Assembly: GCA_041389065.1 (NCBI GenBank)
Contig: JAWKSM010000001.1
Coordinates: 9,461-73,460, forward strand
Length of the DNA: 64,000 nucleotides
Origin: Minisyncoccota bacterium
Lineage (GTDB): Bacteria; Patescibacteriota; Minisyncoccia; Phycocordibacterales; CSBR16-119
Reading direction: 5' to 3'
The position numbers and the translations under genes were made by a program. This document shows, one piece after another, positions 15,498 through 62,735 of this stretch (the stretch's first letter is position 1; each line of letters starts with the position of its first letter). The notes below the pieces were generated by a model. That model saw nothing but the letters and a program-made list of their open reading frames with translations, was not told the origin of the DNA and ran no database searches.

Positions 15498-15504
15498 AAT
15501 TTAA

Positions 15505-15681: not shown

Positions 15682-15695
15682 ACGATTTTAGACAT

Positions 15696-15916: not shown

Positions 15917-15925
15917 AATAAAACT

Positions 15926-15953
15926 AGACCCCGCGACAGTTGTCGCGGGGTCT
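15926..15953 (-). terminator. Intrinsic terminator after the 120-aa ORF
   Basis: AGACCCCGCGACA-gt-TGTCGCGGGGTCT is a perfect 13-bp stem, 8 nt after the stop at 15961, with a T-rich run on the minus strand. Confidence 0.6.
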
Positions 15954-15960
15954 GATATGA

Positions 15961-16323: not shown

Positions 16324-16378
16324 CTTCGGGAGGTTTTAATTAAAGATATGATATTTAAAATCTTTTGTCAAAAATGAA

Positions 16379-16403
16379 GAACCCCGACCATTGGCCGGGG
16401 TTC
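16379..16403 (-). terminator. Hairpin terminator after the 147-aa ORF
   Basis: GAACCCCG..CGGGGTTC stem located between the two orphan ORFs. Confidence 0.45.
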
Positions 16404-16423
16404 GAGGTGTGGTAGAAAGTTCA

Positions 16424-16867: not shown

Positions 16868-16916
16868 CTTAGTAAGGTTCTAGTGGTTTTAAATCAATCC
16901 TACAACATAAAAATAC

Positions 16917-16947
16917 AAAAAGCCAGGCCGCAAGGCCTGGCTTTTTG
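16917..16947 (-). terminator. Strong intrinsic terminator directly after rplB
   Basis: AAAAAGCCAGGCC-ttgc-GGCCTGGCTTTTT on the minus strand, about 40 nt after the rplB stop. This position is normally read through into rpsS. Confidence 0.65.
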
Positions 16948-16985
16948 TGTTCTACGTTCCACGTTTTAAGCTTCACGTTTAACGA

Positions 16986-21226: not shown

Positions 21227-21339
21227 AATATTATATATTGGTTGATGTCTTTAATTTTGTGCACGAGAACTGTGACAAAACCAACGACACCAACATAATT
21301 ACTTAATAATTTACTAATGTGCACTACACATATTTTCAT

Positions 21340-21507
21340 CCTAAAATCGGTTTTTAGGAAACAAAAAGACGCGTAAGTGCGCTGTGGAGTATTGTATATG
21401 AAAAGAGTTGAGGCGTCAAGGAGTTTTTTTCTTTTATTAAATGAAAGGATTTAATTTAAAAAGAAAGCCCCGCAGTCCTTCCGGACTGCGGGGTTTACTC
21501 AAACAAG
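21340..21507 (+). repeat. TCAAACAG-loop structured element, copy 5 (degenerate)
   Basis: CCTAAAA..TTTTAGG hairpin, AAACAAAAAGACGCG, then the tail GAGGCGTCAAGG ... GGATTTAATTTAAAAAGAAA. A GCCCCGCAGTCC-ttcc-GGACTGCGGGG hairpin follows (same GCCCCGCA/TGCGGGG ends as the copy 2 inner stem), followed by TTTA-CTCAAACA-AGG. The long outer hairpin is missing. Confidence 0.5.
21391..21419 (-). promoter_or_regulatory. Sigma70-like promoter, TTGACG-17-TACAAT, reading toward tuf
   Basis: Minus strand reads TTGACGCCTCAACTCTTTTCATATACAAT. The -35 box is the reverse complement of the conserved GCGTCAAGG tail motif of the element. Confidence 0.4.
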
Positions 21508-21517
21508 GAACAGATCA

Positions 21518-21787
21518 CTATGTCAGCATCTGCATCTGGTAGTTGGGTCGGACAACCGTTCCATTGTCGAGAAGAGGTTTCAGGTCAAGCCAGACCAGCT
21601 CATGCAAACGAGGCAACGGGAATTTTGGCTGAGGTAACATCTCAACATCAAGCTTCTCTAGTAGAGCTTTGGCGAGATACTCATTAAGCTCTGACTCATT
21701 TGCGATAGTGTCTCCCTCTAGCCAATCCCGGAAGCGAAAGAGGGATTCCATGAACCCAAGCTTCGATTTCCGAATTGCGCTCATCAT
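21518..21787 (-). CDS. Hypothetical protein (89 aa), orphan between fusA and tuf
   Basis: ORF in a GC-richer segment, downstream of the 62-aa ORF on the same strand in a different frame. Confidence 0.5.
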   Translation of the reverse strand: MMSAIRKSKLGFMESLFRFRDWLEGDTIANESELNEYLAKALLEKLDVEMLPQPKFPLPRLHELVWLDLKPLLDNGTVVRPNYQMQMLT

Positions 21788-21840
21788 GTCACCGTGACAT
21801 AGATGACGGCAACACTCCTGTGGAAGCTGGTTTGACAGAT

Positions 21841-22029
21841 TTAGTATGAAGATGACAGATCTATTACCAGCCTTATCAATAATGCGAGCTTCCCGGACCA
21901 GTAACTCGGAAGTGAGTGGCGCACCTTATGTCCCCAATCATCCTCATATTGAGGTCCAGCGTTTTCGGAATTATCCTGAAAACCCACACGAAATTCGATA
22001 TTCATGGTTACTCCTTCGAGAGTTTTCAT
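21841..22029 (-). CDS. Hypothetical protein (62 aa), orphan between fusA and tuf
   Basis: ORF preceded by the promoter at 22072-22100. It could be a separate small gene or the 5' part of a frameshifted gene continuing in 21518..21787. Confidence 0.4.
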   Translation of the reverse strand: MKTLEGVTMNIEFRVGFQDNSENAGPQYEDDWGHKVRHSLPSYWSGKLALLIRLVIDLSSSY

Positions 22030-22071
22030 GGTGTTTCGTTCTAGTTAGAAGTGCTTTCTTCTTCAAAATTA

Positions 22072-22100
22072 ATATTACTCTTACTAAAAAACTTTTGCAA
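22072..22100 (-). promoter_or_regulatory. Sigma70-like promoter, TTGCAA-17-TAATAT
   Basis: Minus strand reads TTGCAAAAGTTTTTTAGTAAGAGTAATAT, about 40 nt upstream of the ATG at 22029. Confidence 0.45.
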
Positions 22101-22108
22101 GCCAAAAC

Positions 22109-22134
22109 AAAAATCTCCCTCTCGGGAGATTTTT
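22109..22134 (-). terminator. Intrinsic terminator directly after fusA
   Basis: AAAAATCTCCC-gaga-GGGAGATTTTT, 22 nt after the fusA stop. fusA-tuf is normally co-transcribed. Confidence 0.6.
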
Positions 22135-22155
22135 GCTTTTGCTTATTTAAATTAT

Positions 22156-24309
22156 TTAAGCTGTTTGTCTTTTTTTGATTATTTCTTCTGAAACGTTCTT
22201 TGGAACAACATCGTATCGTAGGAATTCCATTGTGAAGTTTCCTCGTCCTGCAGTCATTGATCGAAGATTGTTGATATATCCGAACATTGATGAAAGTGGA
22301 ACAACTGCTTTAATAGCTTGAACCATTCCTCTGTCTTCTGTTCCTTCGATAAGCCCTCTCTTTGATGCAATATCTCCAGTAATGTCTCCCATATATGAGT
22401 GAGGGGCAACAACTTCAACTTTCATCATCGGTTCAAGAATAACAGGACTTGCTTTCTTTGCAGCATCTTGGAAAGCCATTGATGAAGCAATTTTGAACGC
22501 AATTTCAGAAGAGTCCACGTCGTGATACGATCCATCGTATAGATCAACTCGAATATCAGTCATTGGGTATCCAGCAAGAACACCTCTTGCCATTGATTCT
22601 CTAAATCCTTTTTCACAAGCTGGAATATATTCTTGAGGAATAACACCACCTTTGATTGAGTTTACAAATTCCAAACCATCTTCTCTTGAAACGTTCTTTG
22701 GCAAATCTTCTTCAGCCACAGAATAATCAAGTGGAGAAACTCTGATCTTAACGTGACCGTATTGTCCGCGACCTCCTGATTGTTTGATGTATTTATTTTC
22801 AACGTCAGCAGTTCCAGAAATAGTTTCTCGGAAAGCAACTTGTGGAGCACTTGTATTTGCTTCAACAGAAAACTCTCTTTTCATTCTGTCTACGATAATA
22901 TCAAGGTGAAGTTCTCCCATACCAGCGATGATTGTTTCGCCTGTTTCAGGATCTGAAGAAACTCGGAAAGTTGGATCTTCTGCTTGAAGTCTGTTTAGAG
23001 CAAGACCCATTTTTTCTTGGTCTGCTTTTGTCTTTGGTTCAATTCTCATTGAGATAACCGGTTCTGGCGCAACAATCTTTTCAAGCATTATTGGATGATC
23101 TTCATTACAAAGAGTGTCTGATGTTGTTGTATCTTTAAGACCAACAGCAGCAGCGATTTCTCCAGCGTAAACAACCTTCACTTCTTCTCTGTCGTTTGAG
23201 TGCATTCGAAGAATTCTACCGACTCGCTCTTTTATACCTTTTGTAGCGTTGTAAACATAAGAACCTGATTCTAGTTTTCCAGAATATACTCGGATGAAAG
23301 TTAGCTGACCAACGTATGGATCTGATTGAAGCTTGAAAGCCAGTGCAGCAAGCGGGGCTTCGTCAGAAACTTCTCTTTCAACTGTTTCGTTTGTTTCTGG
23401 ATCAATACCTTTTGGTTTTGGAATATCAAGTGGACTTGGAAGATAATCAACAACACCATCCAAAACCAATTGCACTCCTTTGTTCTTTAGAGCTGATCCA
23501 CAAAATACTGGGAAAATTTCATTTTTGATAACAGCAGATCGAAGAGCTTTTTTCAAATCTTCAACAGAAAAATCTGTCTTTCCTTCAAGATATTCTGACA
23601 TCATCGCTTCGTCAGTTTCTACAATTTTTTCTACAAGCTCCATTCGAAGTTTTTCAGCCTCATCTTTGTATTCAGCTGGAATTTCCATTTCTACAATGTC
23701 TTTTCCTTTATCTCCTTCGAACTTATAAGCTTTCATTTTTATAAGATCAATAACAGCTTCGAACTTGTCTTCAAGTCCAATAGGAATTTGAATTCTGACA
23801 GCCTTTTTTGTAAGACGCGCCAAAATACTTTCGAAAGATCTTTCAAAAGAAGCACCTGTTCTGTCTAGTTTGTTAATAAAACAAAGTCGTGGCACGTTTC
23901 CATCATCAGCATATCTCCAGTTTGTTTCTGATTGCGGCTCTACCCCAGCCACTCCATCGAAAACAACAACAGCACCGTCCAAAACTCGAAGAGATCTTTT
24001 CACTTCAATAGTGAAGTCGATGTGACCCGGTGTGTCGATTAGGTTAAACTGACACTTTTTTGAAGTATCTGTTGCAGGCATATATGAAGGGCTCCAAAAT
24101 GCTGTTGTCGCAGCAGAGGCGATAGTGATTCCTCGCTCTCTTTCTTGTTCCATCCAGTCCATCACTGTTTCTCCGTCGTGAACTTCGCCTATTTTGTGAC
24201 TTTCACCAGTATAAAAAAGCACACGTTCTGATGTTGTTGTTTTACCAGCATCGATGTGAGCAATGATTCCAAAATTTCTAACTTTAGCGAGTGGGTAGTC
24301 TCTGTTCAT
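22156..24309 (-). CDS. fusA: Elongation factor G
   Basis: 717 aa; [21 protein letters not shown] motifs and full domain complement. Confidence 0.98.
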
Positions 24310-25315: not shown

Positions 25316-25408
25316 AATTTGAAAAATAGCCCTTAAAAAGACTAGTCGGCATACTTTACTATGTGTATAAAAAAAATGCAAGTGTTATTTGCAATTTTCA
25401 AAAAGAAA

Positions 25409-25432
25409 GGCCCGCCCCTCATGGGGCGGGCC
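25409..25432 (-). terminator. Intrinsic terminator after T9SS-CTD protein A
   Basis: GGCCCGCCCC-atga-GGGGCGGGCC followed by TTTCTTTTT on the minus strand, 20 nt after the stop at 25452. Confidence 0.6.
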
Positions 25433-25451
25433 ATCATTCTCCCGAAGGAAA

Positions 25452-27293
25452 CTAGTTCAGAACAACCTTCACACTTTCGGTTTCTTGTTCACCGATAATG
25501 ATCAGGTTGTACACACCAGGCGATCCTTTTATGACCACCTGGCTACCACTCCTTTGCACCGAAGCTTCTCGACCGAGATGGTCGAAAGCTTGAATGCTTT
25601 GGAATTCACCCTTGATGTTAATCGCTTCACCCAGTCGAGCTGGGTTCGGATACACCAAGTAGCTGTCTGGTTTTTCAGGCCAGAAGCTGAAAGGTTTGAT
25701 GTTTGAAAAGTCATACGACCCGTCAAGGTCGACAGACTTCAGTCTGTAGAAGCTAAGCCCTTCAAGAGGACTCTCATCCACAAACTCATATTGGATCATC
25801 TGCTGGCTATTACGAGAAGCCTCGACAGACCCAACACTTTCAAACACCCTCCCGTCGACTGATCGCTCGACGTCGAAGTGACTACTTCCTTGCTCGCTGG
25901 CAGTCTGCCAAGTTACAAGCGCGGTTTCGTTTTCTCCTTCGACGTCAAACGAAGCAAGTTCGACAGGAAGAACCTGTCCACACGGCACAACCACAGGCTG
26001 GTAGGAGTCGAGCTCCACCAACGCTTCGGTCATTGTCGTGTTTGTAGTCGTTGGAACGTTTTGCACCTGGTTAAAGAATGCTGGGTAAGCGGTGAGCTCG
26101 ATACTCCCCGCCTCTTCACAAGAGCTAAGCACCAATCCTTGGCTTCCGACCGGCGTCACTATGGACCCAGTCGAAGAGTCTTTGTCTTGGTAACTCAGCA
26201 TTTGGAAGTAAGTGGATTCGATAATCCCCTTTCCCGGGGCGCCTCCACCTTCGTAAACGGTTTTGGTCCACGACGCACCCAAAGTGACTTGATCAACCTT
26301 AGACACGAACGAATACGACATGTCTGGGTCTGGCGACGAATTGATCGCTTGACCAGTCATGTAGATACTCGTTCCGTCGGTAGTTAGGTAACCACCATTG
26401 ACCGTCCAACCCGATGGCGCGAAGATGATGCTTGCGCTAAGCAGGTTCAGGCTGCCGTCAGTGCGGACAAGTCCCAAGTGCTGACTCGATGACCCTCTGT
26501 ATGAGAGAAGGAATCCACCTTGATATGGAACTGCGTCGCGCAGAAACTCATCAGCAGTGGACCCGATGGTTGTTTGCCTGTGGCATACACCCAGGTTATC
26601 AAACACCGTCACCGAAATGTCATACGGACCTCCCGATGTTGGATTGCTCCCGAAAAGGAAAATCGAATCCCCGGAAGCAAAAACTCGTTCAGCATGATGA
26701 CCACCGCTAAGCGATCTATCAACTGACTTCCACCACAGGATGTTTCCCGCAGCGTCGAGCTTGCCGATCATCTGGGTTCTCGTCGAGGACGATGTTCTCT
26801 TTGTCCCAGCAACGATTATCTCACCGCTAGGATTTTCAGAAACCGAAGTCAGAACTTCTGTCGTGTCTCGCGACACAATTGGAGTTCCCAAAACCTTCGC
26901 CCAAATAACGTCGCCAGATTGATTCAGTCTCATCGCCAACGCATCTTGCTGGTATTCGCCAACAATAACGATGTCTCCGTTCGAAGCCAGCAGCATGTCG
27001 TTGAAACGACACGTTGCCATAGCGATATCGCAGGAACTCACCGGAATATATACCAGAGTGTCCGAAAGGGTTTTGGCCCAAACAGTTCCTCCAGCATTGT
27101 GACGTGCCACGAAGGCGTTATCGAAACCGTCCCTGGTGTTGTAACCAGAAACGATGAAGTCTCCACTTACAGGAAGACTCACAATCCTTTGACCAACAAG
27201 AGCTTGCCCTGTGGTCGCCGGATCAAGATTGATCTGCTGAGCTGCCAACTCGAAAGTCAGGAGCCCAAAGGCGAAAACAAGGAAGTTTCTCAT
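25452..27293 (-). CDS. Secreted repeat protein with T9SS type-A C-terminal sorting domain (Por_Secre_tail-like)
   Basis: Start set at the ATG at 27293, giving signal peptide MRNFLVFAFGLLTFELAAQQ. The C-terminus VYPNPARLGEAINIKG...GVYNLIIIGEQETESVKVVLN matches the T9SS CTD pattern. It is preceded by the ELASF...W.T.SE...F.VERS.DG...YRLK..D.DG module common in Bacteroidota. GC and GC3 are clearly higher than the host's. Confidence 0.8.
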   Translation of the reverse strand: MRNFLVFAFGLLTFELAAQQINLDPATTGQALVGQRIVSLPVSGDFIVSGYNTRDGFDNAFVARHNAGGTVWAKTLSDTLVYIPVSSCDIAMATCRFNDMLLASNGDIVIVGEYQQDALAMRLNQSGDVIWAKVLGTPIVSRDTTEVLTSVSENPSGEIIVAGTKRTSSSTRTQMIGKLDAAGNILWWKSVDRSLSGGHHAERVFASGDSIFLFGSNPTSGGPYDISVTVFDNLGVCHRQTTIGSTADEFLRDAVPYQGGFLLSYRGSSSQHLGLVRTDGSLNLLSASIIFAPSGWTVNGGYLTTDGTSIYMTGQAINSSPDPDMSYSFVSKVDQVTLGASWTKTVYEGGGAPGKGIIESTYFQMLSYQDKDSSTGSIVTPVGSQGLVLSSCEEAGSIELTAYPAFFNQVQNVPTTTNTTMTEALVELDSYQPVVVPCGQVLPVELASFDVEGENETALVTWQTASEQGSSHFDVERSVDGRVFESVGSVEASRNSQQMIQYEFVDESPLEGLSFYRLKSVDLDGSYDFSNIKPFSFWPEKPDSYLVYPNPARLGEAINIKGEFQSIQAFDHLGREASVQRSGSQVVIKGSPGVYNLIIIGEQETESVKVVLN

Positions 27294-27364
27294 GGGTTTG
27301 TGTGTTTTATGTGTGAATGTTCGCAAAGTGCGAACGTGTCTTACAATGTACTTTCTCAGCCTCT

Positions 27365-27393
27365 TTTATACCATTTTTGACATAAAAAGTCAA
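27365..27393 (-). promoter_or_regulatory. Sigma70-like promoter, TTGACT-17-TATAAA
   Basis: Minus strand reads TTGACTTTTTATGTCAAAAATGGTATAAA, in the AT-rich spacer upstream of protein A. Confidence 0.4.
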
Positions 27394-27429
27394 GTGTATG
27401 CGTGGATTATAAATTAACCTAAAAAAAAC

Positions 27430-27458
27430 TTGATTTTACTGCTTTTATGTGTTATTAT
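27430..27458 (+). promoter_or_regulatory. Sigma70-like promoter, TTGATT-17-TATTAT
   Basis: TTGATTTTACTGCTTTTATGTGTTATTAT, 28 nt upstream of the ATG at 27487. Confidence 0.4.
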
Positions 27459-27486
27459 TTAGCCGAACAACAAACACCATCAAACG

Positions 27487-28641
27487 ATGAAACAGCTAAC
27501 GCTTCTCTTTGCTTTGATGGTCGCCACCGGCACCTTCAAAGCTTACGCTCAGGATGTCGTCTACACTTTCGAAGCCCCCTGCACGAACACACTTTGCCCT
27601 TCTGACCAATGCCACGGAGTTGGAGTTGCAACCCCAAGCACCCTTAACACAAGCGTTTTCGCTTCTGCAAGCGCGCTAAATCCATCACCCTCCCTAGGAA
27701 CAAGTAGTTCATTTTGTGGAACGGCCATGAATGGATTTGCTGCGGGAAACCCAAACAATCCGAACCGTGCTCGTTGGGCCCAGAACTGGACTAGCTCTAC
27801 TACTATAAACACGAATCACTATTTTGGATTCACTCTTGGAGCAGTTCAAAATGGATACATTTCCATATCAAGAGTGGATTTACAAGACAGTAGAAGTGGA
27901 TCTGGCCCACTAACAATCGAACTTCGTTCAAGTGCAGACAACTTTGCAACAACAATCTGGCAACAAACATTGCCAGACAACACTGGGTGGAGATCTTGGT
28001 CAATAACTACAGGACTACCGAGCTTCTACAACTCTCTGACTTTTAGAATCTATGCATACGCAAGCCAGACGACATCTGGCGCTGCATGGAGGATTGATAA
28101 CGTCAAAGTCTGGGCTTCGGTCACCAACCTCCCTATCGAGCTAATCTCTTTCACTGGAGAAAAGTTTGAACAGGATGTACGACTTCGTTGGAAAACAGCC
28201 AGCGAGCAAGACAACGAGCACTTCACTCTCTTTCGTTCACGGGATGCAATAGACGCAACATCCTGGGAAGAGATTGGAAGAGTTCCTGGAGCAGGAACAA
28301 GTCAGAGTCCTATCGACTACGAGTATGTAGATGAGTCACCGAACATCGGGACAAACTACTACCTTCTTCGTCAAACGGACTTTGATGGAACATTCACCAG
28401 TAGCAACATTGTTGCTGTCGAATTCCTAGCTTCAAAGGACTTCTCAGTGTTCCCAAATCCGACATCGCGTGGTAGCCCCGTCAGAACTTCCAAGAGAATC
28501 GACTTCATTTTCGATGATCTTGGTAAAATGACGAGGTTTGACCCGAACAACATCACACTTGAAGTGCCTGGGGTCTACACCCTGGTCCACCAAAGTGAAA
28601 ACGGTTTTTCGGAAACAATCCGACTAATCGTCACCCCCTAG
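27487..28641 (+). CDS. Secreted protein with T9SS type-A C-terminal sorting domain
   Basis: 384 aa; signal peptide MKQLTLLFALMVATGTFKAYAQD. Contains the same ELISF...RWKTASEQDNEHF...YYLLRQTDFDG module as protein A. The C-terminus is FPNPTSRG...GVYTLVHQSENGFSETIRLIVTP. Confidence 0.8.
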   Translation: MKQLTLLFALMVATGTFKAYAQDVVYTFEAPCTNTLCPSDQCHGVGVATPSTLNTSVFASASALNPSPSLGTSSSFCGTAMNGFAAGNPNNPNRARWAQNWTSSTTINTNHYFGFTLGAVQNGYISISRVDLQDSRSGSGPLTIELRSSADNFATTIWQQTLPDNTGWRSWSITTGLPSFYNSLTFRIYAYASQTTSGAAWRIDNVKVWASVTNLPIELISFTGEKFEQDVRLRWKTASEQDNEHFTLFRSRDAIDATSWEEIGRVPGAGTSQSPIDYEYVDESPNIGTNYYLLRQTDFDGTFTSSNIVAVEFLASKDFSVFPNPTSRGSPVRTSKRIDFIFDDLGKMTRFDPNNITLEVPGVYTLVHQSENGFSETIRLIVTP

Positions 28642-28651
28642 AAATTCTAGG

Positions 28652-28686
28652 AAGACCTTCGCCTCACGGCGAAGGTCTTTTCTTTT
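28652..28686 (+). terminator. Intrinsic terminator after protein B
   Basis: AAGACCTTCGCC-tcac-GGCGAAGGTCTT followed by TTCTTTTT. Confidence 0.65.
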
Positions 28687-28694
28687 TATTTATA

Positions 28695-28722
28695 TTGACA
28701 AAAAATATTTCTGTGATATTAT
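28695..28722 (+). promoter_or_regulatory. Sigma70-like promoter, TTGACA-16-TATTAT
   Basis: TTGACAAAAAATATTTCTGTGATATTAT, 39 nt upstream of the ATG at 28762. Confidence 0.45.
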
Positions 28723-28761
28723 TCAACCAAAACAAACCCCGTCCTTTAACAGAAACAGATC

Positions 28762-30465
28762 ATGAAAAAACTACTGACCATAATCATGACGCTTTGCGTC
28801 TGCTTTGTGTACGCGCAAGACCAGATCAGCTGGGTGCGTTTCCAGTGCGGCGATAGCAGCACGGTGAGATACATCTCACTCGAGGACCGCAAGACCATGT
28901 TCAAGGTGAACATGTCCTGGCCCGAGAATGAAACGCGAGAAGTGTTCCAACACTACAACGACAACCCCATTGGCGTGTCCATGGGGCAAATGCAGGGTGG
29001 TGAATACTTCATCACCCTGGATCACCCTGGTGATAGTATCAATCCAGTAATCGGATACCAGAGCATCTACACTGTCAGACTGGGAACCGCAAATGGGAAT
29101 CACACGGAAGACTGCAATGTCCGCACTGAACCAACACCAGTTATTCAAGCCACTATGAGCACCAGCCCGCTTTCGGGCGGCGGCTCACTCGTAACCATTA
29201 TTGGAAACTCACACACAGCAGACACTGTAGCGAGCAACCATAGTGGTTGGGGCTGGATAAGTAATAGCGAGCTACCATGTAGTCGCCACGAGATCTCCAT
29301 CATCACCGATGTGTTTTCTGAAGACGGCCTGGTGTTTTCGGACACGACGGTATGTGTTCCGGGTGTGCCAACAGACTTCTCTGCTGAGTTTGACTATACG
29401 GGTCCGTACACCATATTGTGCGCGGAAAGCCGAATGGAAAAACGAAGCATGGAAGTTCCTGCCGAATTTCCAACACGAGTTATTGTTCTCAGCAGTCAAA
29501 CGTGTCAGATGGCAGGGCAAGTTCCTCCGAGCATCGAGCTTTTGAGAACTTGTGAAGATGGCACTATCGGCACACCACCGACAACAGGAGACAGAGAGTT
29601 CCTCGTTCGATTCAATATCGATTGGCCGGGCGACGATGAGCAGAAACTCCTCTACTACACCGTCCCGAACAACAATACCGGACTACCGAATTTGGTGAGC
29701 AGTGGACAACTCTTCCATCGTGGGCAAAACTACATCGTGATTGAACACGATGATATTGACCCCGTTTCGGGAAGTGCATACTTCCAGGAATGGCACACCA
29801 AGCTGGCCTTCCGTTACGGTGAGGAGTTCATCTACAGTCAGCTTTTCATCGCGTCGACGGAACCCGCGCCAGTGCTCGAAGGATCGTGGCTCCCTGTAAG
29901 TGGAGACTCGGTGTCGTTCTCTTACCGAGAGCACACGGAACTATCCGAAGCGCTCGGCTGGGGATGGATTCTGGGCATATGTCCAGAATATGAGCTCATA
30001 CTCATCAAACGGGTGACCGATAGCGATGGAGAAACAGTGTTCACGGACACGGTCTTCCTCACTCCGGGAATACCTGTTGATGAAGAAGATGGCTTCCTTT
30101 ATACAGGCAACTCAACCGAGCTCTGCCTTGAACTCGAGATGCAACGCATTCACCTCGCTGATTCGGTTCACTTCGAGCCGCAAACAATCATAACGGTGGA
30201 TGGTGGATGCATTGGAAGCTCGACAGCGATTAGCGAAAGCGAAGGTGTTGCCGAGAACCAAACTCGAATCTTTCCAAACCCAACAACGGGGCGAGAAGTT
30301 CGGATACTCGGAGCCATACCTAGCTCGAAGTGGTCTGTCTTCAGTACATCAGGAAGCCTGGTGTTGACTGGAGCAGGTCAGATGATCGATGTTTCTACGC
30401 TGTCCTCTGGTGTTTACGTGGTGAACATTGAAGGCGGCGCCACTGTTCGGCTTGTCCGACAGTAG
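28762..30465 (+). CDS. Secreted protein with an internal ~240-aa duplication and a T9SS type-A C-terminal sorting domain
   Basis: 567 aa; signal peptide MKKLLTIIMTLCVCFVYAQD. The two halves share TEP(T/A)PV, GWGWI, VF(S/T)DT, PG(V/I)P and YTG blocks. The C-terminus is FPNPTTGREVRILG...GVYVVNIEGGATVRLVRQ. Confidence 0.8.
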   Translation: MKKLLTIIMTLCVCFVYAQDQISWVRFQCGDSSTVRYISLEDRKTMFKVNMSWPENETREVFQHYNDNPIGVSMGQMQGGEYFITLDHPGDSINPVIGYQSIYTVRLGTANGNHTEDCNVRTEPTPVIQATMSTSPLSGGGSLVTIIGNSHTADTVASNHSGWGWISNSELPCSRHEISIITDVFSEDGLVFSDTTVCVPGVPTDFSAEFDYTGPYTILCAESRMEKRSMEVPAEFPTRVIVLSSQTCQMAGQVPPSIELLRTCEDGTIGTPPTTGDREFLVRFNIDWPGDDEQKLLYYTVPNNNTGLPNLVSSGQLFHRGQNYIVIEHDDIDPVSGSAYFQEWHTKLAFRYGEEFIYSQLFIASTEPAPVLEGSWLPVSGDSVSFSYREHTELSEALGWGWILGICPEYELILIKRVTDSDGETVFTDTVFLTPGIPVDEEDGFLYTGNSTELCLELEMQRIHLADSVHFEPQTIITVDGGCIGSSTAISESEGVAENQTRIFPNPTTGREVRILGAIPSSKWSVFSTSGSLVLTGAGQMIDVSTLSSGVYVVNIEGGATVRLVRQ

Positions 30466-30481
30466 CAACAACCCTAATGGG

Positions 30482-30516
30482 AAAGGCCCGGCGCATGCGC
30501 CGGGCCTTTTTGTTTT
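30482..30516 (+). terminator. Intrinsic terminator after protein C, at the right edge of the GC-rich island
   Basis: AAAGGCCCGGCGC-at-GCGCCGGGCCTTT followed by TTGTTTTT. Confidence 0.65.
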
Positions 30517-33312: not shown

Positions 33313-33351
33313 AGCAATAATTATATCAGATATTGAAAAACTGATAAAAAC

Positions 33352-33375
33352 AAAAACACCCTTTCGGGTGTTTTT
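33352..33375 (-). terminator. Intrinsic terminator after the glycine-rich giant gene
   Basis: AAAAACACCC-gaaa-GGGTGTTTTT. Confidence 0.6.
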
Positions 33376-33383
33376 GTTTTCTA

Positions 33384-36263
33384 TTACCAAGAGATTCTAA
33401 TTCGTCCGTTTTGTGCTGTTCCTTGGTAAATGTTTTGTGTTGGGTCTGAACAAGTTCTTGGTGCTCCGTTTCCAAATCCAAGAGTTGTTGTTATTGATTC
33501 GCTAGCCAAGTTACATGGACCTGTTGCGCTACCGCTGACAGCAGCAGCACCTTCCTGACCTCGGTTGTAAGTTGAACTGTTTGCAGTAGTATATGTTCCT
33601 TCTGGATTGGCAACATTACCTGCTGTATACATCCATCCACCACCTTTTCCATATCTTAGAGGGATAGTCGTGTTAAATAGGTTTCCACCATAGCCACCCC
33701 ATCCTCCTTCTGCTAAGGCTGAACTTGATCCAGTCAATCTAGTAGTTCCTCCTCTTTCTCCAGGAACTGGAGATGATCCGCTAGTTCCGTTTGCACCCTT
33801 TGCCCCAACAGTGAATTGAAGAGTAGGATTTACAAGGTTTGTTCTAGATATATTTATCTTTTGATATTCTCCAGAACCACCCGCACCTGATTTGTTGTTT
33901 GAACCAGTATAAACTCCACCAGCACCTCCTCCTGCTCCCCAAAGTTCGATTGTGAAGTTTTCTACACCTGCTGGGATAACATTGTTAATTTGGAATGTAG
34001 AAAGTGAGTGTTGTCCAGGTGTATCGAATACAATTTCGCCAGCTTGACTTGTTGTTGGAAGTCCAGAGATTATTACATAACCACTTCCTCCACAACCACC
34101 GCGTCCACCTTTAAAGCTAAATGTGAAAGGTGACATGTTGTAGTATCCTCCGTAACCTCCTCCACCTCCTCCACCTCCATGTCTTGGAGAACCACAGTAT
34201 CCATTTTTACCAAGTCTGTCAGAATATGAATCTGTTCCTCCAGGAGTACCTCCACCTCCACGCGCACTTGTTTGAGATCCGTTTAAGTTAAGTCTAAGGT
34301 CTCCATTTGTGTCATATGACTCACCCCAGCCACCAATACCTCCGCAAGAAACACAAGATGGATTAGAGTTTGGTGTTGCACCTGATTGTCCGTTGAATCC
34401 CCAGTTATAAGCTCCGGTAGAGAGTGCAAGATTTGCATGAGTACCGATTGCAGGAAGACCGTTTATTAAACCTTGTCTAACTGATCCTCCAGGTCCACCA
34501 CCCAAACCTCCGTTAACTGTTGGACCAACTTGAGCTTCTGGTCCACTTGTTGGATCAAAGAATATTGCAGTGTTTCCTCCAGCCTGACCAAAATATGCAT
34601 TGTTATCAATATTAGTTCCTCCTCCAGAAGTCCATTCAGCACCACCTCCACCATTACCACCATAACCGATATTCCAAGTAAGAACATCTCCAGGAACAAC
34701 ATCTACGTCTTCTGTTGAACAATCTCCAGCTGCACCACCTCCACCACCTGAACCACCTGTTCCGATATTATTTGGAGATTGACCAAGATTAGGGTTTCCA
34801 GGAGCTCCGATTCCTCCACCCCCTCCACCTCCTCCAGCACCACAGTATTTGATAGTTACAGTACCGCTAAAGTTAAAGTTGTATTGAGATCCATTATCTT
34901 CTGAAGTAAACATTATTGTTCCATCACCTGCAGGACCACTTACTCCTATTGGAGTTGTTGTTCCCGGAACCGTTGGAGCATCTTCACCTGGAGTTCCAGA
35001 CGGTGGACACATCACAACTTTAAATGATCCTTCTATATAACAAAGATGTTTTACACTTCCGTTTACCCATTGACTGTAAGAAGCGCCATCAAGACCCTCT
35101 AGATACAAGTCACCACCTGTTCCGACATATGTATCTCCTTGAAGCATTGAAAGACCTTGATTTGAAAAAACACCAATACCTTCTGTTGGGTTTGCTAGTT
35201 CCAAAGAACCAATATTTAACCCTGGAGCAAACGGTATTAAGTTATAAGTAAGATTCTTGTTCCATTTAAATGTTCCATCTATGTCCATAGACATCGGGAT
35301 TCTTCCTGGACCAGCGTCTAAAAGAGATGGGTTTGAAATCGGCCCCTTAAACTTAACAGCAGATGAGTTGAAAGTTACATTTTGAGAAGGAGTAAACTGA
35401 CCAAAAACAGTATTACCAGAAGAAACTGTTAAATTATCTGTATTAGAATCACCTAGAACTATATTTGTAGAACTTATGTCTGTAAGATTAGAAATTATCT
35501 TTGTTATATCAGAACTAATTTGAGTAGCACCCAAATTATTTCTACCTATATAACTAGTTGTAGCATCTACTTGGAAAATATTATTTGTAACTATTGTTCT
35601 TGGTATTGCTGGAGAAGATATTGTATCATGTTTTATCCGGTCAGTCGCCTCCCACTGATTTGTCGCACCGTTGTACCACATTGTTTGACCAGCCGTTCCT
35701 GGTGGAAGACCTGGGCCACCTGGATTAACTGTTACGGGTCCTGTTACCCAACATTGACAATCAACATCCCATATAAGAGTATCTCCATCCTCTCCACCAT
35801 CAGGTATTCCTGGCCCCCAAGTTACATTTCCATCTGTATCTGCAGATTTCAAAACTGAACCAGCTTGTGGTTGCGCACTACCAGAAGTAGGTTTGAATCG
35901 TAGTCTACCGAAAATATTTAATTCTGAAGGAGAGTTTTGTAGTCCAACGTTTAACATATTTGTAAAATATGAAGGAACGTAAGACATGAAGAAGTTATTT
36001 TGACCATTTGCAGAGTCGTCGGCAATAAATGGCACGTTAACCGCAGCTCCACCTCTAACATTCAAACCTCCCCCAAGACCAATTCCACCTTGTTTAAATT
36101 GATCTTGAGCACCGATGTTTATCGGAGATGGTGTATTTGTTCCTATAGTCGGAGCCCCGGTTGGAGCAGTCCAGTTGTTTTCTGTTTGCGCAAATAGACT
36201 TGCTGGCACAGAGAATACTGCAACAAACATTAGTAATAAAAATTTTGATAAAAATGTACGCAT
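33384..36263 (-). CDS. Giant secreted glycine-rich protein (959 aa) with repeated GAGGGGG beta-modules
   Basis: Start set at the ATG at 36263 (signal peptide MRTFLSKFLLLMFVAVFSVPASLFAQ). Repeated blocks include TVTIKYCGAGGGGGGGGIGAPG, FTIELWGAGGGAGGVYTG..GAGGSGEY, GGRGGCGGSGYVIISG and GRIRISW. These resemble the bacterial glycine-rich domain family (Pfam Gly_rich, ALK-type GRD). This is recalled from memory and was not searched. Confidence 0.7.
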   Translation of the reverse strand: MRTFLSKFLLLMFVAVFSVPASLFAQTENNWTAPTGAPTIGTNTPSPINIGAQDQFKQGGIGLGGGLNVRGGAAVNVPFIADDSANGQNNFFMSYVPSYFTNMLNVGLQNSPSELNIFGRLRFKPTSGSAQPQAGSVLKSADTDGNVTWGPGIPDGGEDGDTLIWDVDCQCWVTGPVTVNPGGPGLPPGTAGQTMWYNGATNQWEATDRIKHDTISSPAIPRTIVTNNIFQVDATTSYIGRNNLGATQISSDITKIISNLTDISSTNIVLGDSNTDNLTVSSGNTVFGQFTPSQNVTFNSSAVKFKGPISNPSLLDAGPGRIPMSMDIDGTFKWNKNLTYNLIPFAPGLNIGSLELANPTEGIGVFSNQGLSMLQGDTYVGTGGDLYLEGLDGASYSQWVNGSVKHLCYIEGSFKVVMCPPSGTPGEDAPTVPGTTTPIGVSGPAGDGTIMFTSEDNGSQYNFNFSGTVTIKYCGAGGGGGGGGIGAPGNPNLGQSPNNIGTGGSGGGGGAAGDCSTEDVDVVPGDVLTWNIGYGGNGGGGAEWTSGGGTNIDNNAYFGQAGGNTAIFFDPTSGPEAQVGPTVNGGLGGGPGGSVRQGLINGLPAIGTHANLALSTGAYNWGFNGQSGATPNSNPSCVSCGGIGGWGESYDTNGDLRLNLNGSQTSARGGGGTPGGTDSYSDRLGKNGYCGSPRHGGGGGGGGYGGYYNMSPFTFSFKGGRGGCGGSGYVIISGLPTTSQAGEIVFDTPGQHSLSTFQINNVIPAGVENFTIELWGAGGGAGGVYTGSNNKSGAGGSGEYQKINISRTNLVNPTLQFTVGAKGANGTSGSSPVPGERGGTTRLTGSSSALAEGGWGGYGGNLFNTTIPLRYGKGGGWMYTAGNVANPEGTYTTANSSTYNRGQEGAAAVSGSATGPCNLASESITTTLGFGNGAPRTCSDPTQNIYQGTAQNGRIRISW

Positions 36264-36373
36264 GATATTAATAATAAATTTATAAATGCTTCTTATATAA
36301 TAACATTTTTGTATTTGTAAATTGACACTAAACATTTACATTGTGGAAAACTTTTAAAATTTTTTACAAAACA

Positions 36374-39079: not shown

Positions 39080-39397
39080 TTAATTATTGTTTTCTTCTGG
39101 AGCTTTTAACGCTTCGTATGCCATCTGATAAAGCTCAGCTTCTGTGTACTGCTTCATCTCACCTTCTGGAGCTTTGAGTTCCTCGTAGGCTTTTTGATAG
39201 AGCTCGGCTTCTGTATATTGTTTCATTTCACCTTCTGGGGCTTTCAGAGCTTCGTATGCTCTGGCATACATTTCTTTCATTACTTTTCTATTTTCAAAAT
39301 GTTTAACCAAAACTATTACAAGAACAATCGCTAAAATAAAAAGGAGAAAGATGAATGTCTTTTTTTCTTTTTGAGATAATTTTACTTGTGACTTCAT
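39080..39397 (-). CDS. Small single-pass membrane protein (105 aa) with 23-aa tandem repeats
   Basis: TM segment FIFLLFILAIVLVIVLV. The C-terminal part is 2.5 copies of AYE.LKAPEGEMKQYTEAELYQ. Confidence 0.6.
   Translation of the reverse strand: MKSQVKLSQKEKKTFIFLLFILAIVLVIVLVKHFENRKVMKEMYARAYEALKAPEGEMKQYTEAELYQKAYEELKAPEGEMKQYTEAELYQMAYEALKAPEENNN
39095..39265 (-). repeat. 69-bp in-frame tandem repeat, about 2.5 copies
   Basis: Units start at 39095, 39164 and 39233 (plus coordinates). The encoded peptide is nearly identical between units, while many third-codon positions differ. Confidence 0.8.
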
Positions 39398-42480: not shown

Positions 42481-43539
42481 ATGAAAATACAAAACCTAGA
42501 AATAAACAAAAAAGACAAGTCTATAATCGAAATCAAAGGAGAAGTTGATACTTCTGATTTTGAGGCTTCTCGAGAAGAAGCAATAGAAAAACTTTCTTCG
42601 CATGTTGAAGTTGATGGCTTCCGAAAAGGAAAAGTTCCAAAAGAAATGGCAATCAAAAAATTGGGAGATCAGATTATCCTTGAAGAAATGGCGCAAATAA
42701 CTCTTTCAAAGGCATATCCGCAAATTGTTACAGAAAACAAAATTGACGCTATTGGATATCCGCAAATCAGTATCACAAAATTAGCAAAAGGAAATCCTCT
42801 TGGTTTTACTATTTTAACTGCAGTTATTCCAGAAATTAATCTTCCTGACTACAAAAATCTTGCAAAAGATTTGAACAAAAATTCTGAAACTGCAGAAGTT
42901 AAAGACGAAGAATACGAAGGATTTATAAAACAAATTAAAAGAGCAAAAGCTCACGATGATTTTCACAAAGCAAATCCTGATGTAAAAGGACACGATCATC
43001 CGGAAACAAAAGACGAAGATTTGCCAGAGCTTGATTTGGAATATTTGAAAACTCTTGGAAACTTTGAAGACATGGCAGACTTTGAGAAAAAAGTTAGAGC
43101 CGATATTTTAAAAGATAAAGAATTTAGATTGAAAGAAAAAAATCGACTAGCTTTGATTGAGAAAATCGAACAAGAAACAAAAATTGATGTTCCAGAAATT
43201 TTGATAAATAGTGAAATTGAGAAAATTGTTGCCCGAATGAAAAGTGATGTCGAAAGAATGGGATTGAAATACGAAGATTATCTAAAAAGTCTTGGGAAAA
43301 ATGAAGAAGAGATGCGAAAAGATTTCAGAGGTGACGCAGAAAAAAGAGCAAAGATTCAAATGATTGTTGGAGAAATTGCAGTTAAAGAAAATATCAAGCC
43401 AGACGCAGAAAAAGTAAAAGAAGAGATTAAAAAAGTAATGGATGCTTATAAAGATGCTGATGAAAACAGCGTTAGGATGTATGTAGAAAGTGTGCTGATA
43501 AATGAAGAGGTGTTTTTGTTTTTGGAGAATCAAAAATAG
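42481..43539 (+). CDS. tig: Trigger factor lacking the FKBP/PPIase domain
   Basis: 352 aa. Has the N-terminal ribosome-binding domain with the GFRKGKVP signature and a C-terminal arm domain. The stretch where the ~90-aa PPIase domain normally sits is replaced by a short His/Asp-rich linker directly before LPELDLEYLK. Confidence 0.85.
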   Translation: MKIQNLEINKKDKSIIEIKGEVDTSDFEASREEAIEKLSSHVEVDGFRKGKVPKEMAIKKLGDQIILEEMAQITLSKAYPQIVTENKIDAIGYPQISITKLAKGNPLGFTILTAVIPEINLPDYKNLAKDLNKNSETAEVKDEEYEGFIKQIKRAKAHDDFHKANPDVKGHDHPETKDEDLPELDLEYLKTLGNFEDMADFEKKVRADILKDKEFRLKEKNRLALIEKIEQETKIDVPEILINSEIEKIVARMKSDVERMGLKYEDYLKSLGKNEEEMRKDFRGDAEKRAKIQMIVGEIAVKENIKPDAEKVKEEIKKVMDAYKDADENSVRMYVESVLINEEVFLFLENQK

Positions 43540-43642: not shown

Positions 43643-43955
43643 TTACTTTTTTCATGATAAAAAAGTAACAAAAAATCTAGACCCACACTTCACACTTAAA
43701 ATACCATCTTTCTTTTCCCTTGAAGGAAAAGAAACAAAAGTTCAAGACGCAGAAAAATATATCTAAAATTTATTCAATTTTGGCTAAGAAAGTGATGAAC
43801 TCGCCCGAAAAAGAAGTGTCTATACACTTCTTTTTCGGGCTCAAACAGCATCACTTTCTAAAGCAAATTAAATAAATTTTCGGACGATATATTTTAAGCG
43901 TCAAGGGATTTTAATTAAAAAGAATAAGGGCGACCCCGGTGAGGGTCGCCCTTTT
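43643..43955 (+). repeat. TCAAACAG-loop structured element, copy 4 (full length, duplicated 5' module, own terminator)
   Basis: TTACTTTTTT..AAAAAAGTAA hairpin; CTAGACCCACAC motif; a second hairpin TTCTTTTCC..GGAAAAGAA; TTCAAGACGCAG. The long hairpin follows: AAAATTTATTCAATTTTGGCTAAGAAAGTGATG-AACTC-GCCCGAAAAAGAAGTG-TCTATA-CACTTCTTTTTCGGGC-TCAAACAG-CATCACTTTCTAAAGCAAATTAAATAAATTTT. The tail is GACGATATATTTTAAGCGTCAAGGGATTTTAATTAAAAAG. It ends in GGGCGACCC..GGGTCGCCC plus TTTT (43928-43955). Confidence 0.75.
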
Positions 43956-44099: not shown

Positions 44100-44609
44100 T
44101 CAACACAGCAGCGTAAGCGTCCAGCCAGGGCGCACCATCACCCACACCATCCGGTGCGAATGCAGGGCGGCCGCGGTGCTCACGTTCACATGGTTGAAGC
44201 TGTTGTCGCCGTTCATGATCATGCAGCTGCACGATCGTTCAGGCTCCAGCACCACCATGCGGCCGCTGCTCACGTTCACCAACTTGTCGAAGTTCAGGTC
44301 CAGGTTCGTACACATATTGAAGTTCTTCGTGTGGTCGCTCGAGGCGAAACCGGTGTTGCCGACCGTATGATCGGATCGGTGCACCACGGTCTCCTGGCCG
44401 CTGACTTGCGCGAATGCGCTGCAATACTTGTTGGTGATGCTGGCCAGGAAGATCCCTTGCTCGGGCATGATCTGGTCGGCCGATGCGCTGCTGTTGTCGA
44501 CTACTTCGATGTTGTCCACCTTCGGCCCCGTGTCGGGTGCCGAGAAGGCGGGTTTGACACTGAACGCCAAGCCGGCGATCAGTGCCATGATTCCAATGTG
44601 CATCTTCAT
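44100..44609 (-). CDS. Hypothetical secreted protein (169 aa) in a very GC-rich foreign segment
   Basis: Signal peptide MKMHIGIMALIAGLAFSVKPAFSA and strongly G/C-ending codons. The overlapping ORFs on both strands look like high-GC artefacts. The promoter at 44661-44688 points into it. Confidence 0.6.
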   Translation of the reverse strand: MKMHIGIMALIAGLAFSVKPAFSAPDTGPKVDNIEVVDNSSASADQIMPEQGIFLASITNKYCSAFAQVSGQETVVHRSDHTVGNTGFASSDHTKNFNMCTNLDLNFDKLVNVSSGRMVVLEPERSCSCMIMNGDNSFNHVNVSTAAALHSHRMVWVMVRPGWTLTLLC

Positions 44610-44660: not shown

Positions 44661-44688
44661 AGTATAGCATATTATAAAAACTTGTCAA
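44661..44688 (-). promoter_or_regulatory. Sigma70-like promoter, TTGACA-16-TATACT
   Basis: Minus strand reads TTGACAAGTTTTTATAATATGCTATACT. It shares TTGACAA and AATATGCTATA, at the same spacing, with the promoter at 737-764. Confidence 0.45.
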
Positions 44689-44754
44689 GCATTTTATTTT
44701 ATGGTATAGTCAAAAACGTATAAAACCATTATTTATCAACATATTTTAAATACC

Positions 44755-45345
44755 ATGTTAATACCAACAGTAATCGAAAAAACACATAACGGCGAACGAG
44801 CATACGATATTTATTCTCGCCTTCTAAAGGAGAGAATCGTCTTTCTTGGAATGGGAGTTGAAGAAAATTCATCGAGTAATGTAATTGCACAGCTTCTTTT
44901 TTTAGAGTCAGAAGATCCTAAAAAAGATATTTATCTTTATATAAACTCACCAGGAGGAAACGTAAAGGATGGTCTTGCAATAATAGACACAATGAATCAC
45001 ATAAAACCAGATGTGGCGACTGTGTGTGTCGGGATGGCAGCTTCAATGGGCGCAGTAATTCTTTCAGCTGGTGCAAAAGGTAAAAGATTTATACTGCCAA
45101 ACGCCGAGGTTATGATTCACCAACCATTAGGTGGAGTTGAAGGTCAAGCTTCTGATATTGCTATTACTGCGGAAAGAATTATAAAAACAAAAGCAAAACT
45201 TAATAGAATTTTGGCAGAAAATACTGGTCAGAAAATAGAAAAAGTTGAAAAAGATGGAGACCGAGATTATTGGATGGATGCAAAAGACGCTCTAAAATAC
45301 GGAATCGTGGACAAAATAATGGAAAAACCAAAATCTAAGAAATAA
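44755..45345 (+). CDS. clpP: ATP-dependent Clp protease proteolytic subunit
   Basis: 196 aa; [19 protein letters not shown], catalytic [11 protein letters not shown] and MIHQPLGG blocks. Confidence 0.97.
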
Positions 45346-62681: not shown

Positions 62682-62703
62682 GAAAGATACTATAGCATAA
62701 AAC

Positions 62704-62729
62704 AAAAATCTCCCGAGCGGGAGATTTTT
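62704..62729 (-). terminator. Intrinsic terminator
   Basis: AAAAATCTCCC-gctc-GGGAGATTTTT. The stem is identical to the one after fusA (22109-22134). Confidence 0.6.
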
Positions 62730-62735
62730 GTTTTA

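Follow-up and report, generated by a model that had tools for sequence, protein, structure and literature searches.

Our study examined a repeat element at positions 43643-43955 (plus strand) of a 64,000-nucleotide stretch of contig JAWKSM010000001.1 from a Minisyncoccota bacterium (assembly GCA_041389065.1), the whole of which is referred to here as the window. The element may well be one copy of a non-coding, non-autonomous foldback repeat of approximately 200-310 bp that resembles the miniature inverted-repeat transposable elements (MITEs) and belongs to a very widespread family. It would be moved in trans, and its apical loop would act as a docking site that is read in a folded, single-stranded state, as single-stranded DNA (ssDNA) or an extruded cruciform and less likely as RNA, by a factor needed for the propagation of the element. 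The family-wide hallmark is an apex in which AACTC faces TCAAACAG. On one side of these two strands is an outer stem (8-10 bp) and on the other a GC-closed inner hairpin (3-40 nt), and the whole apex caps a rod that is 150-300 nt long. Copies were found in chromosomes, on a plasmid and on a phage contig, in both orientations, and no particular gene accompanies them. Within this lineage of Patescibacteria, copies lie in the terminator-to-promoter gaps of the most conserved gene clusters, where foreign genes gather independently. The existence of truncated and mosaic copies makes the long palindrome look like a hot spot of recombination as well.

The window contains three intact copies, one copy that is cut off right after TCAAACAG and one remnant (Table 1). 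An earlier note on this DNA had described a family of five copies, numbered here by their position. Copies 1, 2, 3 and 5 were confirmed, and they carry the listed sequences, the order of parts and the paired stem changes that had been read in them; the unpaired AACTC and TCAAACAG are identical in all four, which are those that retain the core. Copy 4 proved to be mostly the promoter and leader of tuf, with only its last part being element-like. The family itself is far larger than five, comprising more than 100 structured members in at least 10 phyla, in addition to the one plasmid and the one phage contig.

Structure and covariation of the apex

In an alignment of 32 apex sequences, 92.3 % of the cells at paired positions held standard pairs, compared to 60.6 % in shuffles and no more than 50 % when the partner was slid, and double changes were seen in 135 cells compared to 39 in the control. 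Nine of the ten outer pairs occurred as at least three of the four Watson-Crick types and seven as all four. While the stems covaried, the apical loop strands did not: AACTC was without variation in 121 matches to a covariance model and the 3′ loop varied only as TCA[A/G]ACA[G/A], although this conservation is partly selected for, as the sequences were retrieved by the motif or by a model based upon it. In the relative L135, a double change has turned the otherwise invariant G-C pair beside the loop into A-T. When six copies of the Patescibacteria type were aligned (the four from the window, L128 and L069), 15 of the 47 predicted stem pairs had changed on both sides. This combination of covarying stems and invariant loop strands agrees with the earlier suggestion of a structured element rather than a simple repeat.

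The inner hairpin between the invariant strands varies from a 3-bp stem, which is absent in one copy from the phage contig, to approximately 17 bp. As its length varies, the invariant strands can meet only in a folded single strand and not in a duplex site of fixed spacing. The proposal of a recognised hairpin is therefore upheld, with a motif that would be read folded and single-stranded. The earlier note had left the choice between RNA and ssDNA open; the folded single strand stands, and a near absence of G-U pairs and of any orientation bias argues against a cis-acting RNA.

A triplex-capable, pseudoknotted hairpin precedes the rod in Bacteroidota, Comamonadaceae and Patescibacteria, and this module was found in 45 of 125 instances. 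Its distance from the apex is fixed at 46-51 nt in the AT-rich lineages (Bacteroidota, Patescibacteria and the phage contig), and is 65-79 nt in Comamonadaceae. The pseudoknot loop and its partner covary across lineages (CTTGAT/ATCAAG, CTTGAC/GTCAAG, CTTGAA/TTCAAG and GGCCGCC/GGCGGCC). Three sequence variants from Acidovorax have a linker that is a mirror image of the purine strand of the stem. This fits a triple helix, although the sequence is of low complexity and a direct repeat fits almost equally well.

A complex architecture of conserved size, made up of pseudoknot, linker (with the purine mirroring seen in Acidovorax), rod and apex, would suit a structured non-coding RNA. Such an RNA, either a free small RNA or a cis-acting module, would have an apex loop bound by a conserved RNA-binding protein and a U.A-U triple-helix pseudoknot guarding one end, and would have spread secondarily in the manner of short interspersed nuclear elements (SINEs). 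The inner loops of 6 nt, which often read C(UGCG)G and thus have a UNCG-type closure, point the same way. We consider this explanation possible but doubtful, as only five of approximately 380 paired cells in the best-aligned stem are G-U pairs and orientation relative to the flanking genes is neutral (27 versus 19, with eight of the 27 representing one orthologous Acinetobacter locus). Furthermore, in the lineage of the window the element sits after a terminator and beside an outward promoter, and reading of the sequences by eye revealed on neither strand a conserved promoter that would belong to the element. The tandem arrays and target-site duplications described below are features of DNA.

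Distribution of the family

Members of the family were searched for with the pattern TGAACTCGC-N(5-35)-GCTCAAACAGCA, using one genome per species. This 21-nt core pattern matched at least 118 stretches across phyla, compared to approximately 8 expected by chance according to our own estimate. Nearly all of the matches possessed a paired outer stem and a long rod, and the few that were due to chance lay inside genes (L011, L089 and L117). The covariance model yielded 121 matches in 100 loci. Hosts were found among the Bacteroidota (Chitinophagaceae, Flavobacteriaceae, Marinilabiliales, Tannerella, Proteiniphilum and Cyclobacteriaceae), the Pseudomonadota (Acidovorax, Variovorax, Ramlibacter, Achromobacter, Azoarcus and Acinetobacter), the Bacillota (Tindallia, Blautia, Peptoniphilus and other Clostridia) and the Patescibacteria (Magasanikbacteria and Komeilibacteria), as well as in Ignavibacteriota, Desulfobacterota, Myxococcota, Verrucomicrobiota, Omnitrophota and Margulisiibacteriota.

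The plasmid is pAT6 of Aureibacter, on which the family member lies between cas5d and cas7d; a plasmid BLAST search with copy 5 returned a single 40-nt match, which was this same member. The phage contig, identified by its portal, terminase and capsid genes, carries three copies. Head-to-tail arrays of 4-6 units were present in Geofilum rhodophaeum and in a Bacteroidales metagenome-assembled genome (MAG) (L107 3300-4260, L100 760-1470 and L007 40-1060). Their periods were 168-218 nt, or approximately 230-430 nt in L007, and no unique spacers were seen between the inspected units of L100 and L107. A metagenome scan with a 20-mer specific to the window gave 11 matches, nine of which were chance matches in coding DNA.

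The earlier note could assign the element to no known family of non-coding RNA, and Rfam searches at gathering and at E-value thresholds, on the window and on loci from other phyla, bear this out. No match at the gathering threshold was obtained for the whole window with Rfam 15, nor was there a match at the Tannerella copy, and among 18 diverse element-bearing loci only unrelated RNase P and tRNA were matched. Below the threshold there were generic hairpin and terminator matches, MicX at 33.7 bits (75 required) and BTnc060 at 22.9 bits (228.9 required). The literature was searched by sequence strings and by descriptive terms and no relevant description turned up. This very widespread repeat family is apparently undescribed.

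A number of known signals were considered and dropped because they misfit the variable spacing, the phyletic range or the lack of an adjacent gene. These were a boxA/nut-like antiterminator (the reverse strand reads UGCUGUUUGAGC), an RpoE-type promoter (GAACTC...TCAAAC), the sites of IHF, dif/Xer, hix and LexA, the kink-turn/loop E, a T-arm mimic, similarity to tracrRNA, the single-strand origins of rolling-circle plasmids, F-type ssDNA promoters and 6S or SRP RNA.

Two further observations concern copies in other organisms. In a Desulfobacterales MAG with eight element-bearing contigs (L031, L037, L046, L049, L066, L103, L105 and L110), at least five of the contigs end in or beside the apex, and the element appears to break short-read assemblies in this MAG. 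In an Acidovorax copy (L036, approximately 130-200 of the locus, with the element at reverse-complement position 5441), the sequence breaks off after CTAG, and an insert follows that begins with an open reading frame (ORF) resembling the N-terminus of an IS5-family transposase (MRKQLRDEQWKRIEGLLPGK...), which was identified by eye only.

Copies in the window

A covariance model, which the earlier note had proposed as a check, was built for the apex from 32 sequences, all from other organisms, and recovered copies both in the window and elsewhere. Within the window it gave only three full matches, at 15769-15823 (+), 43781-43864 (+) and 827-910 (-), each with an E value of approximately 1e-13. 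It also picked up the truncated copy 2, and its remaining matches were ordinary terminators with noise-level scores. In 100 shuffles, the number of core pattern matches expected in the window was 0. The copy 5 region folds into one long hairpin, with a minimum free energy of -102 kcal/mol (z = -11.7 compared to shuffles).

An intact copy consists of a pseudoknotted AT hairpin at the 5′ end, a rod hairpin of approximately 160 nt and the apex at the tip of the rod, where AACTC faces TCAAACAG across a GC-closed hairpin of variable length, with an outer stem of approximately 10 bp. The parts had been listed in the correct order in the earlier note, but the CAAAAA..AGAC motif and the tail TATATTTTAAGCGTC are not separate parts; by the fold of copy 5, they are the opposite strands at the foot of one rod of approximately 160 nt (GACGC...GCGTC). 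A segment just 5′ of the rod (..TCAAGAC) complements the loop of the AT hairpin, which produces a pseudoknot topology, with loop and partner reading GTCTTGAA/TTCAAGAC in copy 1 and CTTGAA/TTCAAG in copy 5. Between copy 5 and copy 1, the rod arms show 81 % pairing across 164 nt.

The copies differ at their edges. Copy 5 is preceded by an extra partial module, a direct repeat of 10791-10844 with 80 % identity, and its GC hairpin is a bidirectional terminator with the stronger T-tract on the minus strand. Tail and GC hairpin recur beside other copies in the window and in L135; copy 1 is without the GC hairpin and is followed by an outward TTGACA/TATAAT promoter. Copy 2 is fused to an aspartate-semialdehyde dehydrogenase pseudogene that lacks its N-terminus, with the reading frame open across the junction and the Pfam Semialdhyde_dh match beginning at profile position 69 of 121. 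What had been read as the first part of copy 4 (21340-21420) represents the promoter and leader of tuf on the opposite strand, and window positions 21228-21420 align at 79 % with the tuf upstream region of L133, a relative that is element-free. A candidate internal promoter on the reverse strand of the tail (TTGACG-17-GAAAAT, by eye) was detected by the promoter scan in copy 5 only and was rejected, being judged unconserved in copy 3, copy 1 and L135.

The GC hairpins attached 3′ of the copies qualify as intrinsic terminators, having a GC-rich hairpin and a T-run, and the copies lie between terminators and promoters. They could be taken, on this basis, for mere long palindromic terminators or insulators without a specific partner that share a core by chance or composition, which is very improbable. 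The rod, apex and AT hairpin are not intrinsic terminators, as no T-run lies 3′ of them, and the covariance model separates them from all of the terminators in the window by the E values given above. The 21-nt core, moreover, recurs in more than 100 structured contexts across phyla, with loop strands that are invariant while the stems covary.

Table 1. Copies of the element, their parts, and the core genes and gap blocks located in the 64-kb window
Feature	Position	Strand	Description and basis
Copy 1	787-983	-	Pseudoknotted hairpin, rod and apex (AACTC 893-889, TCAAACAG 850-843), end at AAAACGGTC; covariance model 50.4 bits
Copy 2	10786-10925	+	Hairpin, 5′ arm and apex, truncated exactly after TCAAACAG; truncated covariance-model match 10874-10925
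Copy 3	15696-15863	+	Hairpin 15696-15723, rod 15735-15863; apex with AACTC 15786-15790 and TCAAACAG 15800-15807 around a minimal GC TTTTA GC hairpin; covariance model 52.8 bits, E = 8e-14
Copy 3, tail and two GC hairpins	15864-15953	+	Terminator scan; the inserted 120-aa ORF has its minus-strand terminator at 15926-15953
Remnant, tail and GC hairpin only	21421-21507	+	Resemblance to the element; L135 has a full element at the same position
Copy 5, extra partial 5′ module ahead	43643-43708	+	Hairpin, AAAAAATCTAGACC, CACACTTCACACTTAAAATA; ends inside the 5′ arm of its rod; copy 2 type
Copy 5, 5′ module	43709-43748	+	Polypyrimidine/polypurine hairpin 43709-43734, linker CAAAAG, TTCAAG pairing with loop CTTGAA; hairpin also in the terminator scan
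Copy 5, rod hairpin	43746-43902	+	GACGC to GCGTC, with several internal loops; minimum-free-energy fold
Copy 5, apex	43798-43848	+	AACTC 43798-43802, TCAAACAG 43841-43848, GC-closed 17-bp inner hairpin; covariance model 51.3 bits, E = 2.5e-13
Copy 5, tail (AAGGGATTTTAATTAAAAAG) and GC hairpin	43903-43955	+	GC hairpin 43926-43953; terminator scan, both strands
L5-S14 gap block	10711-11890
L2-S19 gap block	15498-16985
fusA-tuf gap block	21227-22155
EF-Tu	20030-21226
EF-G	22156-24309
Trigger factor	42481-43539
ClpP	44755-45345

Mobility of the element

The copies in a Filimonas MAG (JAFKHH01), of which there are at least 17, are all 360-390 bp long and have 18-bp terminal inverted repeats (CATTGTTGTCCGAGTAAG). 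The AT-rich 9-bp sequences on the two sides of a copy agree on average at 6.8 of 9 positions, compared to 2.6 of 9 in the control, and at 9 of 9 in three copies. Inverted repeats at the termini and target duplications of 9 bp make the Filimonas copies classical MITEs. One shorter element shares their ends but is missing the rod, which was deleted between short direct repeats, and the other inverted-repeat matches in the Filimonas loci were either this rod-deleted derivative or chance matches. The flavobacterial copies show a different possible inverted repeat by eye and seem to have ends unlike those in Filimonas. The family also has the short, non-coding and multi-copy character of MITEs, at 200-390 bp and with no conserved ORF, with 3-5 copies in the 64-kb window and with the arrays of Geofilum.

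Related copies in Patescibacteria were found in new places and combinations. L069 holds a copy that is 90 % identical to copy 1 at an unrelated locus, where the same -35 region comes next and is followed by a different small gene. L122 is a mosaic, in which a hairpin of the copy 3 type is joined to a 5′ arm of the copy 5 type and a 3′ arm of the copy 1 type. Breakpoints at or inside the rod in copy 2, in the partial module of copy 5, in L122 and in the remnant at 21421-21507 suggest that the long palindrome promotes rearrangement.

The earlier note had advised a search for a recombinase or transposase that co-occurs with the element, and no such gene was found in the window or enriched beside the approximately 120 copies elsewhere. 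The window proteins included no recombinase, transposase, integrase or HUH gene. A Pfam scan of 150 neighbouring ORFs revealed no enrichment of a transposase, recombinase, HUH or reverse-transcriptase family, and all-against-all clustering of the ORFs near copies grouped only housekeeping genes and the orthologous Acinetobacter neighbours.

Several observations weigh against a MITE-like repeat. Clean inverted repeats and duplications were obtained in one lineage only, Filimonas, and neither terminal inverted repeats nor a target duplication were recognised in the window copies and their relatives. No autonomous partner with the same ends and no trans-acting protein was found in the 8 kb searched per locus. 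The combination of a pseudoknot and a triplex-compatible linker is found more typically in RNA, and two sets of mismatches also lean towards a structured RNA. Among the arm mismatches, those that the reverse strand would read as G-U are in 2:1 excess (217 versus 111), with many contributed by related Filimonas copies, and in the pseudoknot two mismatches read A.C on the forward and G.U on the reverse strand. Copy 1 is present at the corresponding locus in L128, where the element is 96.4 % identical, compared to 79.8 % for the adjacent gene and 56.5 % for the adjacent non-coding DNA. All of the differences between L128 and copy 1 are structure-neutral, with one compensatory pair among them. Conservation so far beyond that of the flanks would again suit an RNA. 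It looks like purifying selection at the level of the host, although recent replacement by a circulating element or gene conversion could also have produced it.

The ends of a MITE are normally its best-conserved part. In the present family, conservation across phyla is instead higher in an internal motif than at the ends, for which ordinary MITE biology offers no explanation and which is a further point against the MITE-like repeat. We offer as a tentative alternative, and one that we would not ourselves expect to prevail, that apex, pseudoknot/triplex module and fixed-length rod form the recognition scaffold of an undescribed system. This would be either a transposition or recombination machinery that reads folded ssDNA, or a structured RNA that is mobile like a bacterial SINE and has a widely shared protein as its binding partner. 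In either form, it would explain why conservation across at least 10 phyla is higher for the internal motif than for the ends of the element.

Genomic setting and foreign DNA in this lineage

The majority of genes in the window lie on the minus strand, and the closest homologues of its L2 protein are labelled Patescibacteria. In addition to the genes in Table 1, the window encodes S12, S7, S10 through SecY (the S10/spc cluster), NusA and type IV secretion genes. The ribosomal cluster is broken at fusA-tuf, L2-S19 and L5-S14 by inserted blocks of 0.9-1.5 kb, and the tig-clpP gap contains a further inserted block of 1.2 kb. Along the operon, the order within a block is core gene, terminator, accessory DNA, terminator, element (in reverse complement), sigma-70-like promoter and next core gene. 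The accessory DNA includes the aspartate-semialdehyde dehydrogenase pseudogene (10926-11831, +), which is short of approximately 20-25 N-terminal codons and occupies the L5-S14 gap in antisense orientation, two ORFs without a Pfam family (147 and 120 aa), and an ORF of 169 aa (44100-44609, -) in DNA of approximately 57 % GC, whose translation has a signal-peptide-like N-terminus.

The earlier note had described compositionally foreign DNA on the 3′ side of every copy. These flanks are indeed GC-rich for the genome, at percentiles 88, 94, 77, 89 and 100 of 600-nt windows for the five copies. A causal tie between the element and the foreign DNA did not hold, as the same three ribosomal gaps contain unrelated accessory genes in two relatives, one of them element-free. 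The L2 proteins of these relatives, L133 and L135, are 93 % and 88 % identical, respectively, and both genomes have extra ORFs in the three gaps. The inserted ORFs of the window, L133 and L135 show no detectable mutual similarity and no Pfam family apart from the asd fragment in the window; across the three genomes, only the terminator edge and the promoter/leader edge of the gaps are conserved. In L135, full elements occupy two of the gaps, fusA-tuf and L2-S19, and are placed and oriented as in the window; L133 has no element in the gaps, where the distance from terminator to promoter is 16-30 nt. Since the gaps are also variable in L133, they are hot spots regardless of the element, and the link between element and foreign DNA is positional, not causal. 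The conserved flanking genes may supply homology for the recombination of incoming DNA, and the AT-rich spacers between terminator and promoter are possibly among the few harmless places for insertion in a compact genome.

GC-rich accessory DNA 3′ of every window copy, together with an identical orientation in five of five hot-spot cases (the window and L135), could also be read as the trace of a ssDNA recombination site, attC-like or similar to an IS200/IS91-type end, that is cut at the apical loop and captures or delivers foreign genes as cassettes. The break of copy 2 at the 3′ edge of TCAAACAG, where it is joined to a foreign pseudogene, would be expected of such a site, as would the arms of L122 from different copy types. 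In addition, inner loops of 5 nt form, when read on the reverse strand, GNA triloops with a C-G closing pair, which are a very stable type of DNA hairpin. We nevertheless judge cassette capture to be improbable. The gaps of L133 vary without any element, no integrase or HUH gene is present in the window or enriched near copies, and the copies have no attC R/L boxes. Orientation shows no bias relative to local GC skew (39 versus 55), which argues against a mechanism tied to the lagging-strand template, and most copies in other phyla are free of cargo, with those in Filimonas having 9-bp duplications.

Some features of the gaps and their surroundings were noted separately. Each gap block in the three genomes has its own terminator, followed in the window by a sigma-70-like promoter for the next core gene, so the cluster appears to be split into transcription units. 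The S14 ORF as called (10324-10710, -) has 128 aa compared to 89 aa in relatives; a downstream start is probable, which would lengthen the leader between promoter and gene. The 169-aa ORF has a near-consensus promoter (44661-44710) that lies back to back with the clpP promoter and overlaps it; the two share a palindromic -35 region (CTTGACAAG). In L135, a free-standing ORF of 84 aa with a GIY-YIG domain (1689-1943) lies directly upstream of the S12 gene, which fits the notion of selfish genes filling the space between conserved ones. In the window, a block of approximately 5 kb upstream of S12 (25400-30500) has a GC content of 44-52 %, compared to 37 % for the window, and encodes ORFs of 624, 384 and 567 aa. 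The C-terminus of the 567-aa ORF has a sorting domain of the Por_Secre_tail type (type IX secretion), which is unexpected in Patescibacteria, and the block looks like a foreign island.

Elsewhere in the window, a family of bidirectional terminators (AAAACAAAAA-stem-loop-stem-TTTTTGTTTT) follows unrelated genes at 11852-11887, 22104-22139, 33346-33381 and 62699-62734, with two of the four being 89-94 % identical. Three tandem 69-nt repeats with 78-86 % identity (39094-39300) lie within an ORF of 105 aa (39080-39397, -), and a glycine-rich repetitive stretch at 33900-34850 (GGN-type, 9-nt period) lies in an ORF of 983 aa (33384-36335, -) that has a Pfam Gly_rich_2 match.

Comparison with known systems

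The element was compared with the hairpin MITEs Correia (Neisseria), ERIC/IRU, RUP and Nezha. Like these, it is small, non-coding, multi-copy, intergenic and foldback, has no transposase of its own and occurs in either orientation, also inside operons; terminal inverted repeats and a target duplication are shared by way of the Filimonas copies. The known MITE families are restricted to a genus or family and have conserved ends, whereas here an internal apical motif of approximately 21 nt is kept in at least 10 phyla while ends and stems differ, and a pseudoknot module and a rod of fixed length go with the motif. The element would be a structured foldback MITE with one feature that known MITEs leave unexplained, namely this internal motif, which is conserved beyond the ends across phyla.

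Repetitive extragenic palindromic (REP) sequences and their paired form, the REPINs, which are mobilised by REP-associated tyrosine transposases (RAYTs), are likewise hairpin-forming intergenic repeats with no gene of their own that are moved in trans, as we propose for the present element. One Bacteroidales/Geofilum subfamily has a REP-like start (GTAGTG...CACTAC). In REPINs, however, the foot is conserved with a GTAG or CGTC tag and the tip is variable, whereas in our family the tip is conserved and the foot differs by lineage (GACGC/GCGTC in the window). No RAYT-like gene was found near any copy and no Y1 transposase among the neighbours, and REP sequences are not known to be common to different phyla.

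Integron attC sites also keep structure over sequence, vary in length, use the unpaired bases of a folded strand as recognition features and have variable genes nearby. The present element is longer, has the pseudoknot module, and the same gaps vary without it; the copies contain no R″/R′ boxes (RYYYAAC/GTTRRRY) and are dispersed rather than forming a cassette array, and the window encodes no integrase. The TnpB/IscB omega RNAs and IS110 bridge RNAs resemble it in being structured non-coding modules with pseudoknots or internal loops that occur on mobile elements across phyla. Those RNAs lie beside a protein gene and have loops or guides that vary with the target, whereas here there is no adjacent gene and the loops are invariant; Rfam gave no match to the HEARO or IS605-orfB motifs. 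The palindromic ends of IS200/IS605 elements are a poor fit, given the dissimilar ends, the inverted repeats and duplications in Filimonas, the lack of a GC-skew bias and the absence of TnpA/TnpB among the neighbours. Regarding retrons, the window showed no reverse transcriptase, and none appeared in the 25 families to which neighbouring ORFs were matched most often.

Significance

If it is indeed undescribed, this family is among the most widely distributed structured repeats in bacteria. An invariant loop over such a range implies a partner that is either universal or very promiscuously transferred, and the identification of this partner would add a new mechanism of mobilisation or a new RNA-protein system. 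In practical terms, many intergenic hairpins and assembly breaks in MAGs that lack an explanation would be annotated with an apex covariance model. For the Patescibacteria, our data show hot spots for both foreign genes and these repeats in the gaps that separate the most conserved genes (fusA-tuf, L2-S19 and L5-S14 in the compared relatives, and tig-clpP in the window).

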